NCBI GenBank assembly: GCA_964394405.1
Contig: CAYMVY010000001.1
Location: forward strand, 38,546 to 102,545
DNA length: 64,000 nucleotides
From: an uncultured Gammaproteobacteria bacterium
Lineage (GTDB): Bacteria; Patescibacteriota; Patescibacteriia; Magasanikbacterales; UBA922
Direction: 5' to 3'
Position 1 is the stretch's first letter. Every line of letters begins with the position of its first letter. The position numbers were made by a program, and so were the translations under genes. Positions 9,332 through 58,725 of the stretch are shown one piece after another. The notes beneath the pieces were generated by a model. The model saw only the letters and a list, made by a program, of their open reading frames with translations, searched no databases and was not told where the DNA came from.

Positions 9332-10835
<1,504 letters not shown>

Positions 10836-12252: not shown

Positions 12253-12684
12253 TCAGCCGAGCGTGCCCGCCAAGATCGGCGCGAAGAGCTTCTCGGGATC
12301 TTCGGACTCGACAGTGCCCTCACCCTTCTCCAGGTAGACGCGCATGCGCCCCGTGCGCTCGAGTGGAACGTCGTGCGCCAAGTAGAACACATCGACCTTG
12401 AAGAACCTCTCCTCGATCAGGTCACGGATCTGGCCGATCAGGAGCAACGCCCCCGGCTTCGGCTCGTAGTAGGAGATGCTCTCCACGAACAGCTCGAGCT
12501 GATTCGGGAAGATGCCACGCCCGTCGACACAGACCGTCATGGGCTGACGATCAGTGGTGTGGTAGTAGTCCCGGTGGGACACATAGATGTCCCAGATCCC
12601 CGAATTGTTCGAATTCGAGACGATCGGAAGGGTGACAAAATCTTTCCCCTCCTCCCCGACAGACACGTTGTCCAAAGCTCCCAT
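12253..12684 (-). CDS. Hypothetical protein A1 of GC-rich island A (paralog of the 58303-58725 protein)
   Basis: Internal Met preceded by the SD gtcgccAGGGGGttatcATG. About 55% GC. Shares the spaced motif EGxxF..LP...YYxxxDRxxxxVxDGxGxFxN with the island E protein. Confidence 0.6.
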   Translation of the reverse strand: MGALDNVSVGEEGKDFVTLPIVSNSNNSGIWDIYVSHRDYYHTTDRQPMTVCVDGRGIFPNQLELFVESISYYEPKPGALLLIGQIRDLIEERFFKVDVFYLAHDVPLERTGRMRVYLEKGEGTVESEDPEKLFAPILAGTLG

Positions 12685-12875
12685 GATAACCCCCTGGCGA
12701 CTGAAGAAAAACACGTGCTGGTGTCGCAAACCAGACAGAAAAAAATATCATACATAGTGAAAAATGTCAATAATAAAACAAAAAATCCTCTGAATAAAGG
12801 ATTGACCAATCCGCATTCACCCAAGCCGAAGCTCAGATGAATGCGGAACAGAGAACGTTGACCCACACACTGACC

Positions 12876-13175
12876 TCACGGGTCGAGGACGATCACGTAG
12901 CGCGTCACCTGTTCATCCGGCTGATGGGGCACGTCGTGAACATTGGGACCGATCCGTTCGATCGAGACGATGGTATTGTAGTTCAGCATGGCGAACCACG
13001 CCGAATCCGGGAACACAATCATCTCAGACGTCCGATCACCGTCATGCGTCCAGTGAAGGGAAAAAAGATTTTCAGGAAAACCCCCATAGGAGATGCGGCC
13101 AGTCTCCTTATTACCCTGATCATCATACCGAGCCAGCGGCGAACCACGAAATTCCAAACCGTACAGAATATCCAT
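12876..13175 (-). CDS. Hypothetical protein A2 of GC-rich island A
   Basis: 99-aa ORF with the SD caGGAGGGttttccATG and its own promoter about 35 nt upstream. GC-rich codon usage. Confidence 0.55.
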   Translation of the reverse strand: MDILYGLEFRGSPLARYDDQGNKETGRISYGGFPENLFSLHWTHDGDRTSEMIVFPDSAWFAMLNYNTIVSIERIGPNVHDVPHQPDEQVTRYVIVLDP

Positions 13176-13213
13176 GGAAAACCCTCCTGAAACAGTGGCG
13201 TTTCTTATCATAC

Positions 13214-22598: not shown

Positions 22599-22600
22599 AT

Positions 22601-22727
22601 TTTAAACTCAAAAGTAAAAACTCAAAGCTTAAAACTGTATCTTAAAACTAAAAACTTAACTTCCCCTGATTTTGAATTTTTAGTTTCAGTTTTACCTTTT
22701 GACATTTAAGTTTTGAATTCTCCTTTG
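22601..22727. repeat. AT-rich MITE-like repeat element, copy 1 (AAAACT array / spacer / AGTTTT array)
   Basis: The left arm has TTAAAACT repeated at about 13-nt phase and the right arm has AGTTTT repeats. The right arm ttttgaatttttagtttcagttttaccttttgacatttaagttttgaattc is about 88% identical to 38486-38536. Confidence 0.6.
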
Positions 22728-22800
22728 TCGGGCTAACACGACTTGAACGTGCGACCTCATGACCCCCAGCCATGCGCTCTACCAACTGAGCTATAGCCCG
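22728..22800 (-). tRNA. tRNA-Pro (anticodon GGG)
   Basis: 73-nt cloverleaf CGGGCTATAGCTCAGTTGGTAGAGCGCATGGCTGGGGGTCATGAGGTCGCACGTTCAAGTCGTGTTAGCCCGA. C1:G72, G37, T-loop TTCAAGT; no encoded CCA. Confidence 0.85.
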
Positions 22801-23206
22801 ATACACTCATTGCCCACAGATAATAAAACAAAAAACCCTTTTTTTCAAGAGTTCCTTGTATGACCCCAGAGAGATGCAGTACGAAATACTACTCCTAAAG
22901 ATATAGGTGGGTGGCCGCAACGCGAGCCCACGGGCTCGAGAAATATTGGCTTCCCAATGTAGTATGTTTGTAGAATAGTATATGTACTGTATCACTAAGT
23001 ACCAGGGTCAATTCTTAATATATCAAGAGGTACACAATTGTGCAAATACGACTCATCCACTGCCTAGAACATTCTAAATAATGGAGGAGAGACGACCAGA
23101 TGAGACAGGTCGCCGAGAAGCAAAAGAACAATAACGAAAACGCGATAACGCATAAGTCGGGATATCCCAACTCACACGTTACCACTTGGACCTCCCCTGA
23201 CTTCGA

Positions 23207-23406
23207 TCAAGAGTCGTGATTGCCCCGCTGCCGTTTGACCGGAGCTGGGACGGACACGACCTGGGACTCAAAGAGGGGGCGCCGTCGACATCCACGGATA
23301 GTCGCGGGGTCGAGGCGAGCCGTGTCACCACCCGAAGGAGTCGAGGACTTTTTCTTGGACTTGGGCAAATTCTTTGCCCACACTTGATACACATGATTTT
23401 CAGGCA
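23207..23406 (-). CDS. Small hypothetical protein of GC-rich island B (66 aa)
   Basis: SD ttctGAGGAtcgctATG; MPENHVYQVWAKNLPKSKKKSSTPSGG...; basic, GC-rich codons. Confidence 0.4.
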
Positions 23407-23693
23407 TAGCGATCCTCAGAAGGATGCTCGATTGAGTATTCTCAAACTTTGAGTACACTCGCACCAAGCGAAAGTCGGTCCAGACGAAATTCTTTCTTTG
23501 AAAAAACTTATTCTAAAAACATTGCATAAGAATACAAAAATAAAAAAAGCTTGTAAAGAATATTATTACTAATTCCTTACAAGTTATTCACAGATAGATC
23601 TGCCACTATCTTCCGATAATGAAAGACAATGGCAGATGGGCGGTCGACGAGTGGGCACTCATCGATCGCCCCGAGGAAAAGAACGGACGAAAC

Positions 23694-23910
23694 TCACGTA
23701 ACGGCATCAACCTGCTGAGCAGGCGCGTAAGCCGGTGTATACCAGCCAGACCTGTCAACAGTGATAGTTCGCTTGCAGACACACGTGACGCGGCAGCCAT
23801 CTCCACGTGCTTCCACGCTTTCAATGACACCAGCGCCACACGAACACTCGAAGGCCTGACCTTCTCGAATGCGATCAAGCCGACACATTCCTTTGAGTCC
23901 AATGGGCATG
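23694..23910 (-). CDS. Small Cys-rich protein of island B (71 aa)
   Basis: SD cacacAAGGAGagcgaccATG; MPIGLKGMCRLDRIREGQAFECSCGAGVIESVEARGDGCRVTCVCKR with six Cys, possibly a metal-binding knot. Confidence 0.5.
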
Positions 23911-24023
23911 GTCGCTCTCCTTGTGTGACGGGTGAACAAGACGAATGGACGCGGAAGTTGCGAGAGAAGCAACGCGAGAGCCAGAGTTGCCGGCTCAGCG
24001 CGTTACCACACTCATCTTGATAG

Positions 24024-24224
24024 TCAGTCGAGGCCGTACTTGTGACGCAACTCGATCCCCTCACGGAGCTCGAAGAACGGATCGGTGACGTACCTCGGTC
24101 GACGGTTGGGACCGCGATTCGAGTTGTACTTGTGCTTCGGCGGGAGAACCGCCTCCGGGGACTGGGTGGACGCAGTGTCGAGGTTCTGCTGCTGTGACGG
24201 CAGCTTGGAATCAGTTCCAGACAT
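24024..24224 (-). CDS. Small S/T/Q-rich protein of island B (66 aa), member of the MS-x-(T/S)...SP / RxRY..D..EL motif family
   Basis: SD cgAGGGAatgccATG; MSGTDSKLPSQQQNLDTASTQSPEAVLPP...NRRPRYVTDPFFELREGIELRHKYGLD. Confidence 0.5.
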   Translation of the reverse strand: MSGTDSKLPSQQQNLDTASTQSPEAVLPPKHKYNSNRGPNRRPRYVTDPFFELREGIELRHKYGLD

Positions 24225-24304
24225 GGCATTCCCTCGAAATTCTCTCGTGTGGCGCACGAGAGTTATTCGTCTTCCCAAGAATTCCCACCGTAGGAATACT
24301 TGTT

Positions 24305-24355
24305 CAAACGAGTTGCTGTAGGGACAAAAAATCTATCGACACAGCAACTCGTTTG
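24305..24355. repeat. Perfect 15-bp inverted repeat with 21-bp spacer (caaacgagttgctgt ... acagcaactcgtttg)
   Basis: Exact reverse-complement arms read directly from the sequence. Located between two small island B ORFs; no downstream T-tract. Confidence 0.7.
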
Positions 24356-24478
24356 TGACAAATATCCAACAAAATATATAAGGAACAAAACACTCTATTT
24401 CACCCCCTACTAAGTACATATTTTTTACTCAATAGGGGGTGAGCAACGCAGAGGACGATACGTTTTCACCCCACAGAT

Positions 24479-24655
24479 TCACCGAGTGGATGAGGGATCT
24501 CGGAACTTGTGGTTCAGATGATCCTTGTTCGGACGGAGGAGCGACAGGAGAAGCTCTTCGTCGATCTCGTCATAGCGACGACGAGAAGAGAACGGTTCGG
24601 TAGTCGGCGTGGGCGCGACAGGCTCTGGGGGACGGGGAGATTGAGTATCAGACAT
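24479..24655 (-). CDS. Small S/T/P-rich protein of island B (58 aa), same family as 24024-24224
   Basis: GGAG 9 nt upstream; MSDTQSPRPPEPVAPTPTTEPFSSRRRYDEIDEELLLSLLRPNKDHLNHKF. Shares RxRY-D-EL-L-LR with the 24024 ORF. Confidence 0.45.
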   Translation of the reverse strand: MSDTQSPRPPEPVAPTPTTEPFSSRRRYDEIDEELLLSLLRPNKDHLNHKFRDPSSTR

Positions 24656-24704
24656 GGTAGACGGCTCCATTCTAGAGTGGAATGATTCTCTGGGCGAAGA
24701 GGCA

Positions 24705-24740
24705 TTGATCTTGAGGCGAGTTCGAATCTATACACAATTT
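24705..24740 (-). promoter_or_regulatory. Putative promoter (TTGAAT-N18-TGTATAGAT, extended -10) for island B small ORFs
   Basis: The minus strand reads gTTTGAATgtatatatactgaaattgTGTATAGATtcg. Confidence 0.3.
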
Positions 24741-24923
24741 CAGTATATATACATTCAAACCCGCCTCACCAAAGCACATATCAAATACAGACACTCACCA
24801 ATCTCTGCGTTGCAATTTGTAAAGAACAATATCGCTACCCCCCTTCAAAAATCCACATAGCGTTCCTATTCAGGAAAGTGAATATCGATTCACATCGGTA
24901 CTCACTTTCCTGAATTTTTTCCT

Positions 24924-24957
24924 AAAAAAAGACCCCAAACTTTTTGGCTTGGGGTCA
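24924..24957 (-). terminator. Intrinsic terminator
   Basis: The minus strand reads gaccccaagccaaaaagtttggggtcttttttt. Confidence 0.55.
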
Positions 24958-25189
24958 GTTCTAGTAAAAGTTTGAGAATATTATCTCCTCTACCATCTCA
25001 AATTAGTACTAACCCCATGCGAATAATCGAGCGCCATGACAAAGCAAAAATTCACCTTGTTGAGGCGCTTGGTAATGAGATTAATAATTGTCTGAGAAAA
25101 TAATTTCATAAATGTATTACACACATATCTGACTATAACTCTGGATCTGTATGTGGTCAAGCTTTTTACCATACTTATCCACAAGCAAC

Positions 25190-25218
25190 AAAAAACCCGC
25201 TATGAACAGCGGGTTTTT
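25190..25218 (-). terminator. Intrinsic terminator for ndk
   Basis: The minus strand reads aaaaacccgctgttcatagcgggttttttgtt. Confidence 0.65.
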
Positions 25219-25229
25219 CATGGAAAATA

Positions 25230-25712
25230 TTATACTCTCTCATCTTCAGTATATACATGCAGATAATCGCTCTTCTCATAGTCATGCAATTCATCTGCTT
25301 TAAAGAAACGCTGTACCTCAGCTTTTGCAGCCTCAACAGAGTCAGACGCATGAATCACGTTACATGCGACACTCATCGCATAGTCCCCCCGAATAGAGCC
25401 AGCTTCAGCAGTTCGAGCTTTGGTAATTCCGGTAATCAATCTGATGGCATTTACCACTTCCAATCCCTCCCATACCTGTACAATCACCGGTGAACTCATC
25501 ATGAATCGCTCAACTCCTGGATAAAATGGTTTTTCAGCAATATGTGCGTAATGCTCGCGAAGCACCGCTTCCTCGAGTCGCATCATTTTCATACCTACCA
25601 ATTTCAAACCTTTCTGTTCGAATCGATCAGTAATTTTTCCTACCAACCCACGCTGAATTGCGTCTGGTTTAATAATTACGAGTGTCTTTTCTTCTAATCC
25701 TTCAAATTTCAT
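25230..25712 (-). CDS. ndk: Nucleoside diphosphate kinase
   Basis: VIIKPDAIQRGLVGKI ... NVIHASDSVEAAKAEV; the active-site His motif is present. Confidence 0.92.
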   Translation of the reverse strand: MKFEGLEEKTLVIIKPDAIQRGLVGKITDRFEQKGLKLVGMKMMRLEEAVLREHYAHIAEKPFYPGVERFMMSSPVIVQVWEGLEVVNAIRLITGITKARTAEAGSIRGDYAMSVACNVIHASDSVEAAKAEVQRFFKADELHDYEKSDYLHVYTEDERV

Positions 25713-28770: not shown

Positions 28771-29256
28771 TTACCCGTCGACCAATTCGATGGTGCTCTC
28801 GTTGTCCACCTGGACATAGATGGTTCGAAAGTAGCCCTGAGGAGCCCATCGCCCCGTCACGAGAACTTCCTGAACAATCGAATACCAGTTGCGATCACCG
28901 AAAAGCACAGTCCAGACACGCTTCCTCACTTCGTTCATGTGGTACGGTCGTGGTACCTGCGGACGCCGTTGGCCCATACGCAGATGCCAGTAATCATACT
29001 TCTCTTCCGAGCCCTGCCAGCAGACGTCGACCGTCACTCGTCTGAAGTAGCCCACAGGGGCGCACTCCTCGACGAGAAGGATGACGACTTCAAACGGGGT
29101 CATGTTTCCGAAGAGAGTGTGCCATGCCTCATGATACCGACGAGCGAGACGAACCAGATTGTCTGGTTGTGGCATACCCTTCTTACAGCGTGAACGTGGC
29201 ACCTTGTGATGCGACGTCATTTGTGACGGATCATCCGACTTCGCACGTTTTCCCAT
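28771..29256 (-). CDS. HNH-nuclease-like protein with degenerate zinc ligands, in GC-rich island C
   Basis: SD gctcGAGAGGGcacaaATG; HHKVPRSRCKKGMPQPDNLVRLARRYHEAWH matches HH..P.S.GG....NL..LC..CH...H, with the Cys ligands replaced by A and Y. About 58% GC. Confidence 0.5.
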   Translation of the reverse strand: MGKRAKSDDPSQMTSHHKVPRSRCKKGMPQPDNLVRLARRYHEAWHTLFGNMTPFEVVILLVEECAPVGYFRRVTVDVCWQGSEEKYDYWHLRMGQRRPQVPRPYHMNEVRKRVWTVLFGDRNWYSIVQEVLVTGRWAPQGYFRTIYVQVDNESTIELVDG

Positions 29257-29344
29257 TTGTGCCCTCTCGAGCAAAAGGACAAACACTTAAACAATCATAA
29301 CCCTGATTGAAAAAAAACACAACTTCTGTTAGTGTTAGCAACAT

Positions 29345-30980: not shown

Positions 30981-31009
30981 TTGACAAGCACGCAGTTCTC
31001 GTGTAGACT
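30981..31009 (+). promoter_or_regulatory. Consensus-like sigma70 promoter (TTGACA-N17-TAGACT) of GC-rich island D
   Basis: The plus strand reads cTTGACAagcacgcagttctcgtgTAGACTg. Confidence 0.5.
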
Positions 31010-31071
31010 GTCTCGGTCTCTAAAAAGACGTATACGGAAGTATACGTTTTGCGTTCTAGGAGGAACGAGTC

Positions 31072-31275
31072 ATGCAACACAACCGTCACACGCAACGCCC
31101 CCACCAACCCAACACCCATCTACCCGCCCCGAGTCTGCAGGCACGCGTCCAAGCGTTCGCCTGGCGCACTGCAGCACGAATCGTGCTCCCGCTCTTCGTC
31201 ATGGGACTCCGGAAATCGGAACGCCCACCACAGCGAAACACGGTGACCGATCAGGGTCACGGGCGACGTCTGTAG
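31072..31275 (+). CDS. Small hypothetical protein of island D (67 aa) with a hydrophobic segment
   Basis: Strong SD ctAGGAGGAacgagtcATG. MQHNRHTQRPHQPNTHLPAPSLQARVQAFAWRTAARIVLPLFVMGL... Flanked by its own promoter and terminator. Confidence 0.5.
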   Translation: MQHNRHTQRPHQPNTHLPAPSLQARVQAFAWRTAARIVLPLFVMGLRKSERPPQRNTVTDQGHGRRL

Positions 31276-31326
31276 TCGCGAGTGCGATTCGACGTGGTGC
31301 GGGAGGACAGAGAGATAAAAATCAAA

Positions 31327-31398
31327 GACCACCCGCTACCACATGATATTCTAAACAATTGGAATATCGTGTGGGAGAATCCGGGTGGTTTTTGTTTT
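31327..31398. terminator. Nested-hairpin bidirectional terminator (island D ORF and queA)
   Basis: Outer stem accacccg/cgggtggt plus tttttgtttt; inner stem ccacatgatattc/gaatatcgtgtgg. Confidence 0.5.
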
Positions 31399-58302: not shown

Positions 58303-58725
58303 TCAGACGCTCGAGGCGAGCATCTTCTTCCCCACCTCTTCGTCGGTCGCGCGCCGGACGCAGGCGTAGAGGGTATCGACCCACACGACGGTCACGTGGG
58401 ACACACCAGGGACGAGTCCTTCGGGTGCGAACATCCGACACGTGCGGGAGCCGCCCGGATTCTTGAAGTAGAACCAGACGCCACCATCCTCGACCCCATG
58501 CCTACGGTCCCGACAGAGCGGGTAATAGACCGGCGTCTCCGGATACTTGTTCGCCTTGTTGCTCGGGAGCGACCGCGCCTCGGCCGGCAGGAGGAAGGTC
58601 AAGCCTTCCTTGAGAAGAACGGACGGCGGTCCGTTGTCCACCGGGATGTCGAGGTGATGGAACACCTCCTTCCCACTCAGATGGCTCATCACCACCTCGG
58701 GCGTATCATCTTCAGAGACCCACAT
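58303..58725 (-). CDS. Hypothetical protein E1 of GC-rich island E (140 aa), paralog of 12253-12684
   Basis: SD acAAGGGGGtcttacATG. Shares EGLTFLLP...YYPLCRDRRHGVEDGGVWFYFKN with island A's EGKDFVTLP...YYHTTDRQPMTVCVDGRGIFPN. Confidence 0.6.
   Translation of the reverse strand: MWVSEDDTPEVVMSHLSGKEVFHHLDIPVDNGPPSVLLKEGLTFLLPAEARSLPSNKANKYPETPVYYPLCRDRRHGVEDGGVWFYFKNPGGSRTCRMFAPEGLVPGVSHVTVVWVDTLYACVRRATDEEVGKKMLASSV

Follow-up and report, generated by a model that had tools for sequence, protein, structure and literature searches.

Four mini-protein genes in a variable, GC-rich interval beside tRNA-Pro in a clade of Magasanikbacteria

Four small genes between tRNA-Pro and ndk

The DNA analysed here is a 64-kb stretch (64,000 nucleotides of the 597-kb contig CAYMVY010000001.1; 41.7% GC), hereafter called the window, in which a GC-rich segment, island B, is bounded by tRNA-Pro(ggg) (22727-22800, minus strand) and ndk (25230-25712, minus strand), with a UPF0176 rhodanese protein and UvrD as further neighbours. 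Four small open reading frames (ORFs) lie on the minus strand of the island (Table 1), where an earlier note made from the sequence had placed a cluster of small genes, and comparison with related genomes indicates that all four are protein-coding and under weak purifying selection. The genes are restricted to one genus-level clade of Magasanikbacteria, within which gene content is variable. Each is preceded by a Shine-Dalgarno (SD) sequence, again in agreement with the earlier note, and the SD cores match the anti-SD of the 16S rRNA of the window; given that the 3' end of this 16S rRNA (…CACCUCCUUUC) carries the canonical CCUCC, the four SDs are meaningful. The complete 16S rRNA gene lies at 9332-10835 on the minus strand, and the 23S and 5S genes were not found in the 64-kb window, i.e., the rRNA operon is unlinked. 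The description of the island as 1.6 kb at about 57% GC holds for the ORF bodies (56-60%) but not for the whole segment, which averages 50.6% over 23062-24748; a 100-bp GC profile resolves it into four blocks of 53-66% GC and spacers that descend to 21-45% (given as 20-45% elsewhere).

Table 1. Genes, hairpins and promoter-like sites of island B, in the order of minus-strand transcription (positions are those of the window).
Feature	Position	Strand	Description
ORF4	24479..24655	-	58 aa; SD GGAG; MSDTQSPRPP…RRRYDEIDEELLLSLLRPNKDHLNHKFRDPSSTR; called as gene in source genome
Hairpin A	24400..24442	-	17-bp stem CTCACCCCC…GGGGGTGA; directly after ORF4 stop; U-rich tail
Hairpin B	24293..24367	-	Arms 24305-24319 / 24341-24355 plus outer helix; between ORF4 and ORF3 units
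Hairpin C	after ORF4	-	Small CACGGTGG hairpin
Hairpin D	24235..24269	-	CTCTCGTG…CACGAGAG (CTCTCG…CGAGAG); abuts ORF3 SD upstream; 5'-UTR element
ORF3	24024..24224	-	66 aa; SD GAGGG; MSGTDSKLPSQQQNLD…RPRYVTDPFFELREGIELRHKYGLD
ORF2	23694..23909	-	71 aa; Cys-rich; SD AGGAG; called as gene
Terminator of ORF3-ORF2 unit	23541..23582	-	CTTGTAAGGAAT…ATTCTTTACAAG followed by T8
ORF1 promoter-like site	23557→23529	-	TTTACA-17-TATTCT, from scan; overlaps ORF3-ORF2 terminator
ORF1 5'-UTR hairpin	23437..23455	-	CTCAAAGTTTGAG, repeat arm
ORF1	23207..23407	-	66 aa; basic, pI 10.7; SD GAGGA; MPENHVYQVWAKNL…RRRPLFESQVVSVPAPVKRQRGNHDS; called as gene
Terminator-like hairpin after ORF1	23142..23185	-	20 pairs, then GTTTTCGTT; from terminator scan

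Loci for comparison were retrieved via ndk from metagenome-assembled genomes (MAGs), several of which are labelled Candidatus Magasanikbacteria or Patescibacteria and others generically or discordantly; their ndk is 93-99% identical to that of the window. About 10 distinct lineages share the synteny ndk → island → tRNA-Pro → UPF0176, namely WIN (the window sequence in comparisons; =L001), L005, L006 (≈L168), L007, L008 (=L003), L009, L010, L011, L018, L027 (=L164), and L166 (=L167). The interval from ndk to tRNA-Pro measures 1.3-3.0 kb in this island-bearing clade and just 431-447 bp in the sister clade (L013, L084, and L085; ndk 81-83%), which has none of the four ORFs; a scan of JGI metagenomes with ndk found no island-clade member (best 83%). 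The set ORF4-3-2-1 is complete in WIN, L006, and L166, and L027 is without ORF4, while in L008, L010, L011, L007, and L009/L018 the corresponding slots are occupied by small ORFs that differ in part, several of them with Cys pairs. Further evidence that the interval accepts insertions is provided by an extra 23S_rRNA_IVP four-helix-bundle gene (PF05635, E=1.8e-36; weak bAvd-like match), which in three relatives lies between ndk and the adjoining unit X described below (L006 6591-6941, L011 6580-6930, and L018 3422-3823). No paralogues of the island genes were found elsewhere in the 64-kb window. Recombination, considered on account of incongruence between alleles and phylogeny, was dropped because the ndk tree is star-like and permits no such claim.

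Several lines of evidence support the coding status of the four frames. Each is free of stops in every relative that carries the gene, with SD and ATG kept, and of the six frames compared by Nei-Gojobori tests on nucleotide alignments, the proposed one had the lowest ratio of nonsynonymous to synonymous substitution rates (dN/dS, 0.28-0.55), tied only by the antisense frame that shares its third positions (0.7-2.5 in the remaining frames). In a four-lineage alignment running from ORF3 to ORF1, six of six indels within ORFs are multiples of three, compared with none of 18 in the spacers, and ORF1 and ORF2 have an excess of substitutions at third positions. The ratio of nonsynonymous to synonymous differences per site (pN/pS) is mostly about 0.3-0.6, with ORF3 and ORF4 pairs ranging up to about 1.1. 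The exact proteins of three of the four ORFs already exist as gene calls in a public collection, each as a singleton cluster, and in L166, an independent assembly, the gene caller predicted all four in unchanged order. The plus-strand 39-aa ORF also listed in the earlier note is indeed open in the window (23100-23219), but it fails as a gene, for in L027, L006, L166, and L168, the four relatives with an alignable region, it has internal stops and no ATG start; it overlaps the terminator-like hairpin after ORF1.

Properties of the proteins and of the spacers

ORF2 has orthologues P0006-P0009 and P0017, with pN/pS of 0.26-0.55 in all 10 pairs and substitutions distributed 45/30/74 over the codon positions. 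A word-indexed search returned five family members among 5.8 billion proteins, to which HMMER, run exhaustively against 1.84 billion representatives, added P0017 together with six remote proteins of 62-69 aa (P0021-P0026; E 8e-7 to 5e-4); large repeat proteins that were also retrieved (P0018-P0020) were judged spurious repeat or low-complexity matches. In the resulting 12-sequence alignment, C22, C24, G27, C43, C45, and G55 are invariant and G17, Y39, and Y57 nearly so, giving a core of CxC-x18-CxC. The six cysteines noted earlier are all present in the window protein, but only C22, C24, C43, and C45 are kept in orthologues and remote relatives while the remaining two vary, and the proposed Cys-rich knot of six cysteines was not sustained. 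On sequence grounds, ORF2 is a member of a sparse family whose mini-proteins measure 62-72 aa and share the invariant CxC…CxC core. Its AlphaFold2 (AF2) model predicts a three-stranded sheet around the Cys residues (predicted local distance difference test, pLDDT, 70-81 in the core; mean 63.5), for which Foldseek found nothing significant in the PDB (best E=0.27); profile and sequence searches of the PDB likewise gave no significant match. Among the remote relatives, P0023 is part of a closely packed series of tiny CxxC ORFs, which adjoins a RusA-like ORF scoring sub-threshold in Pfam (21.6 vs a cutoff of 22.8 bits); the contexts of the other remote relatives are too short to judge.

ORF3 occurs in L005, L006, L010, L027, L166, and L168 and in the database entries P0010-P0016, the seven relatives found among 5.8 billion proteins, all from the island clade. 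Its three indels are all multiples of three, its pN/pS is 0.45-1.1, and its substitutions are almost flat over the codon positions (37/29/36). Conservation is concentrated in the first ~55 nt, synonymous sites included, and in the last ~10 codons, where the motif ELRxK[YF]G.D is kept across relatives; the middle exists as two allelic types, whose origin by a compensated frameshift was ruled out by nucleotide alignment in all three frames. The AF2 model (pLDDT 66.7) is disordered save for one predicted helix at residues 51-63, which coincides with the conserved ELRxK[YF]G motif.

ORF4 and ORF1 are built alike, with conserved parts at the two ends (a short N-terminus and a charged C-terminal module) and P/S/T-rich sequence between them. 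ORF4 has orthologues in L006, L008, L011, and L166 plus a variant in L010, with the frame open in all of them, indels that are mostly multiples of three, and pN/pS from 0.27 (WIN-L166) to ~1.1; an in-frame ATG at 24670 would lengthen the protein to 63 aa, yet this start overlaps the GGAG SD. For ORF1 (orthologues in L027, L006, L166, L168, and L010), two frames are open at the left end of the island, of which the 66-aa MPENHVYQVW… is the conserved one and not the 71-aa MCIKCG… (85 vs 56 bits against L027; dN/dS 0.45 vs 0.78). Over its alignments, ORF1 has dN/dS of 0.32-0.45 in its own frame vs 0.7-1.9 in the other sense frames, both of its indels are multiples of three, and its substitutions are distributed 39/24/52. 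The suggestion that ORF3 and ORF4 form one conserved family, united by MS(D/G)T… and RxRY..D..EL, did not hold: the resemblance is visible and not above chance (hhalign E=0.19, probability 0.3%), and the RxRY stretch is missing from most ORF3 orthologues. Paralogy among ORF1, ORF3, ORF4, and the variants in L009/L018/L008 was similarly rejected (hhalign E=0.14-0.64, not significant).

The four proteins span grand averages of hydropathy (GRAVY) of -0.08 to -1.30 and pI values of 6.0-10.7, and none contains a hydrophobic segment (maximum Kyte-Doolittle mean over 15 residues, -0.15 to 0.76), which points to a cytoplasmic location. Type I toxins are small hydrophobic membrane-active peptides; bacteriocins and precursors of ribosomally synthesized and post-translationally modified peptides (RiPPs) have an N-terminal signal or a leader with a hydrophobic core and stand beside modification or export genes; and type II toxin-antitoxin systems consist of adjacent genes with recognizable toxin and antitoxin domains in one operon. 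The hydropathy values above are at odds with the first two classes, as is the gene neighbourhood with the second; with regard to the third, Pfam, NCBIfam, PADLOC, and PHROGs gave no match for any of the four ORFs, and promoters and terminators are separate. The idea of small secreted or toxin/antitoxin-like peptides thus finds no backing in these results, while a regulatory role, also raised at the outset, is possible.

The proteins evolve quickly. Between WIN and L006/L027, ndk has pS of 0.56-0.58 and pN of 0.015-0.023, compared with pS of 0.36-0.62 and pN of 0.19-0.35 for the small ORFs, i.e., the small ORFs change 10-20x faster at nonsynonymous sites at similar pS; across lineages, the pS of ndk is 0.56-0.72 and near saturation. 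The GC content at third codon positions (GC3) of the small ORFs is 0.46-0.79, vs 0.337±0.039 for 25 long window genes (0.33-0.37 in ndk, EF-G, and UPF0176).

The spacers, by contrast, with their terminators, promoter-like sites, and hairpins of the 5' untranslated region (5'-UTR), are far more conserved than the genes between them: the AT-rich spacers are 85-95% identical, vs ~44% identity at synonymous sites of ndk. An intrinsic terminator combines a stable stem-loop with a U-tract behind it and stands downstream of a stop codon, and such structures follow both ORF2 and ORF1. The former is near-invariant in six genomes, the distant L008 and L010 among them. Hairpin A, whose U-rich tail is weaker, is the probable terminator of ORF4; its minimum free energy is far below that of shuffled sequences (z=-8.0), and it is kept with upper-stem changes in L006, L166, and L010, with a T-run behind it in L166. 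The gap between ORF3 and ORF2 comprises 114 GC-rich nt with no promoter or terminator signal, from which we infer a bicistronic arrangement, the two genes probably being co-transcribed. Hairpin D was found as an inverted repeat, and its stem bases are invariant in WIN, L006, L027, L005, and L010; the 5'-UTR hairpin of ORF1 shows a compensatory change in L006 (CCCAAAGTTTGGG).

The perfect 15-bp inverted repeat with a 21-nt spacer described in the earlier note was recovered as the two arms of hairpin B, but its interpretation as an operator was not. A palindromic operator for a dimeric repressor has fixed half-site spacing and is kept wherever the regulated gene is present. In hairpin B, which extends to ~26 bp (z=-8.3), 96.7% of cells over the 15 pairs are paired in four lineages, and compensatory double changes occur at five of the 15 pairs vs 0-1 in slid controls (four sequences, hence limited statistics). 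The loop varies in length (21 nt in WIN, 20 in L006, 20 in L166, and 27 in L010), L006 has one G·U pair, possible only in sense-strand RNA, and the left arm is missing in L027 and L005, which keep ORF3 and are without ORF4. Given this covariation, the variable loop, the G·U pair, and the loss along with ORF4, hairpin B is an RNA hairpin tied to the upstream gene or to an intergenic transcript and not an operator of fixed geometry. It has no U-tract and could serve as a second terminator, a 3' stabilizer, or a 5' leader.

Interpretation of the array

The reading that we favour, at slightly better than even confidence, is that island B is a lineage-restricted array of three minus-strand units (ORF4, ORF3-ORF2, and ORF1) encoding four genuine, cytoplasmic, fast-evolving mini-proteins with a binding or regulatory role. 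ORF2 would fold as a small beta knuckle and bind a metal ion (zinc) via its four cysteines. ORF1, ORF3, and ORF4 would be intrinsically disordered chains whose short conserved motifs at the two termini dock onto a larger protein or nucleic-acid partner, in which case the module would act by binding or regulation and not by catalysis, secretion, or membrane damage. The array would be accessory and cassette-like, occupying an expanded interval of variable gene content. Its GC3, its absence from the sister clade, and the differing gene content are circumstantial indications that it is possibly of foreign origin.

Several points weigh against this reading. Metal binding by ORF2 and partner binding by the other proteins are purely conjectural, and the AF2 models of ORF2 and ORF3 are of moderate confidence and lack a significant structural or PDB match. 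ORF3 and ORF4 have weak codon periodicity and some pairs with pN/pS near 1, so that both could be barely constrained. The suspected foreign or mobile origin has no counterpart in matches to phages, plasmids, or IMG/VR, in an integrase, or in an att-like repeat, and the island is 5' of the tRNA; the elevated GC3, moreover, persists where synonymous sites of ndk are near saturation, unlike what simple recent transfer would leave. Finally, each family is represented by 4-6 lineages only, every one of them a MAG.

In one alternative, the ORFs would be transcribed, and possibly also translated, while evolving in an essentially neutral way as young, de novo, or decaying frames of a GC-rich, stop-poor sequence, with function confined to the flanking regulatory or RNA elements. 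The pN/pS of 0.8-1.1 in several ORF3 and ORF4 pairs and the flat substitution pattern of ORF3 speak for it, as do the largely disordered proteins, the gene content that differs among genomes, and the existence of overlapping frames that are open through composition alone. We nevertheless regard it as unlikely: ORF1 and ORF2 are under consistent purifying selection, the four frames are intact across lineages that approach neutral saturation, indels are strictly in phase, and the remote homologues of ORF2 found elsewhere share invariant Cys and Gly residues with it.

A further alternative, that the island is the remnant of a phage or mobile element with small genes for anti-defence, superinfection exclusion, or toxin-antitoxin-type functions, is suggested by the adjacent tRNA gene, the atypical GC3, the presence/absence pattern relative to the sister clade, the variable cassettes (including the 23S_rRNA_IVP / bAvd-like gene in three genomes), and the array around P0023. 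Elements integrated at tRNA genes bring an integrase, leave a direct repeat of the tRNA 3' end, and insert on its 3' side. Here, no integrase-like ORF was found between ndk and UPF0176 and no direct repeat involving tRNA-Pro or other att-like repeat, and the island is situated 5', not 3', of the minus-strand tRNA. Searches for DNA similarity between the island and phages or plasmids returned none, tblastn of the proteins against phages gave noise only (E at least 4), and scans of IMG/VR with the ORF2 profile and P0023 found no relatives. The family databases named above were equally silent, none of the ORFs resembles a hydrophobic type I toxin, separate promoters and terminators are unlike a tight toxin-antitoxin operon, and the island has been inherited vertically through the clade. 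A mobile remnant accordingly appears rather improbable.

GC-rich islands in AT-rich genomes usually mark structural RNAs, and the GC-rich segments could be structured non-coding RNAs or dual-function small RNAs (sRNAs), with the open frames a by-product of GC richness. Variable GC-rich helices with conserved A/U-rich linkers do resemble large RNAs, the GC3 elevation suggests selection at the nucleotide level, the beginning of ORF3 is conserved even at synonymous sites, the adjoining units X and Y look like sRNAs, and at the corresponding position the sister clade carries a candidate RNA with a high degree of structure. However, the island bears no similarity to that RNA, and shuffled sequences fold as well as the bodies of ORF2-4 (z -0.2 to -1.6) and only slightly less well than the ORF1 region (z=-2.3 and -2.5). 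Rfam 15 covariance models at gathering score matched only tRNA-Pro at the island locus, and relaxation to E<=5 over 22600-25300 produced no credible match. Indels in phase, the third-position excess, SD and ATG, and the lack of stops would be unexpected of pure RNA genes, and we consider this explanation to be of low probability. Lastly, the notion of one larger gene across the island, with the small ORFs as off-frame artefacts, raised by a 207-aa minus-strand and a 133-aa plus-strand frame that are both open in the window (in one assembly of this strain, a gene caller chose the former), is effectively excluded, given that both frames are fragmented or start elsewhere in L006, L027, L010, and L005, have pN/pS of ~1 or higher, which also speaks against dual coding, match no family, and have the R/S-rich composition typical of off-frame translation of GC-rich DNA; the earlier note had rightly suspected such R/S/P-rich frames of being artefactual.

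The cause of the GC3 anomaly deserves separate consideration. As GC3 is high in lineages near neutral saturation, neither amino-acid composition alone nor simple recent transfer explains it. RNA structure was rejected as the cause of the GC richness, for the ORF bodies fold no better than shuffles (z -0.2 to -2.5 overall), and selection on the overlapping frames was ruled out by their pN/pS of ~1. Other GC-rich patches of the window contain Pfam-less ORFs of 111-171 aa at 12253-12729(-), 12876-13211(-), 28771-29286(-), 58303-58725(-), and 30981-31346(+); four of these five have GC3 of 0.60-0.82, while 30981-31346 has GC3 of 0.44 and GC2 of 0.69. Island B would then be one example of a class of GC-rich orphan genes that the genome appears to carry. 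A bolder version, which we offer as an improbable speculation, is that this Magasanikbacteria lineage keeps a distinct GC3-rich orphan class, exemplified by island B and at least four further patches of the window, against its AT bias via RNA-level selection or GC-biased gene conversion, and that the fast-evolving disordered products mediate lineage-specific interactions, e.g., with the host cell of the presumed episymbiont. Under RNA-level selection, the units would be dual-function sRNA/mini-protein genes with conserved promoters, UTR hairpins, and terminators; under gene conversion, the locus would be a recombination hotspot.

Among known systems, the small zinc-finger proteins related to CPxCG proteins offer the closest comparison for ORF2. 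These have fewer than 100 residues with a size peak at 50-70, are exemplified by the one-domain protein Brz of Halobacterium salinarum, and carry two Cys/His patterns 7-40 residues apart, of the type CxxC/CPxCG with two or three residues between cysteines (PMC2253796). ORF2 fits in size (71 aa; relatives 62-72 aa) and in spacing, with 18 residues between C22/C24 and C43/C45 in all 12 sequences, and it is likewise a stand-alone mini-protein for which regulation by binding is plausible; zinc binding would be a putative property, and the model, of moderate confidence, has a three-stranded sheet around the Cys residues. Its pairs, however, are CxC (CSCGAG and CVC), with one intervening residue and no CPxCG-like pattern, which places it outside the motif definition, and neither sequence similarity nor significant structural similarity to the family was found. 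Brz, in addition, is archaeal, whereas the host of ORF2 is a bacterium of the candidate phyla radiation (CPR). With phage early or 'moron' arrays and tRNA-side accessory hotspots, the island shares a row of 58-71-aa orphans of atypical composition, variable cassettes, and tRNA adjacency, and P0023 lies in such an array; however, moron arrays consist of tightly overlapping ORFs, whereas each island unit has its own conserved promoter, terminator, and UTR hairpins, and the island is vertically inherited with no integrase, att site, or phage or plasmid homologue. Cytosolic bacterial small proteins that act by binding larger proteins have been reviewed (PMC10730256). The island proteins share their size, the lack of membrane segments, and short motifs in disordered chains, but they have no homology to any characterized small protein, and a rate of evolution much higher than is usual for characterized examples.

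CPR bacteria, or Patescibacteria, have tiny genomes with a large share of genes of unknown function, of which small ORFs are the least explored, and literature searches found no description of islands of such small genes in these organisms. The locus yields four mini-protein genes that are clearly delimited and validated by comparison, together with a map of their regulatory elements and a new CxC…CxC mini-protein family. It also presents two clear anomalies, namely regulatory spacers whose conservation far exceeds that of the genes under their control and a GC3 that, at close to double the genomic level, persists across lineages. The observation and the genes are real, and they amount to narrowly distributed new small-protein families of odd composition and conservation, not to something categorically new. 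Should the proposed GC3-rich orphan class prove real, it would offer a way into the question of how reduced symbiont genomes gain or invent functions specific to their lineage; otherwise, the island is an ordinary accessory small-gene cluster, and the present analysis is mainly of value as an annotation correction.

Adjoining candidate RNA elements

Two further units flank the array on the minus strand. Unit X (24925-25160) lies between ndk and ORF4 in all 11 genomes and comprises an invariant promoter (TTGAC-17-TATAGT, 25160→25132), a transcript of ~190 nt, and a covarying terminator with a U-tract (24956→24931). It contains an ORF of 35-39 codons (MKLFSQTIINLITKRLNKVNFCFVMALDYSHGVSTNLRW) with in-frame indels and conservation that stops at the stop codon; this ORF has no SD, a pS of only 0.17-0.36, and pN/pS of 0.3-1.1. 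No match was found in Pfam or Rfam, and unit X may be either an sRNA or a mini-protein gene. Between it and ORF4, an inverted repeat of 22 bp (24868-24915; 91% complementary; ATTCAGGAAAGTGAATATCGAT / ATCGGTACTCACTTTCCTGAAT) is followed by T-runs on the plus strand and is 85-93% conserved in L006; it may be a plus-strand terminator or an upstream element of ORF4. Unit Y (22830-23046), found in eight of nine genomes, consists of ~150 conserved nt that precede tRNA-Pro. Its central hairpin covaries (GAGCCCG…GGGCTC / TAGCCCG…GGGCTA / TGACCTG…GGGTCA), and the tRNA-Pro promoter (TTGAAA-17-TATTAT, 22848→22820) shares part of its sequence with a terminator-like stem. The unit matches nothing in Rfam and may be regarded as a candidate sRNA.

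In the sister clade, the corresponding interval (L013 6484-6913; L084 4981-5427; L085 4981-5413) consists of ~430 GC-rich nt (55-56%). Derivation of the island from it was rejected, as neither blastn nor nhmmer detected similarity. The interval is without an Rfam match, folds far better than shuffles (z=-9.75), and includes a long-range helix of ~26 bp with compensatory changes between L013 and L084, making it a candidate novel structured RNA.

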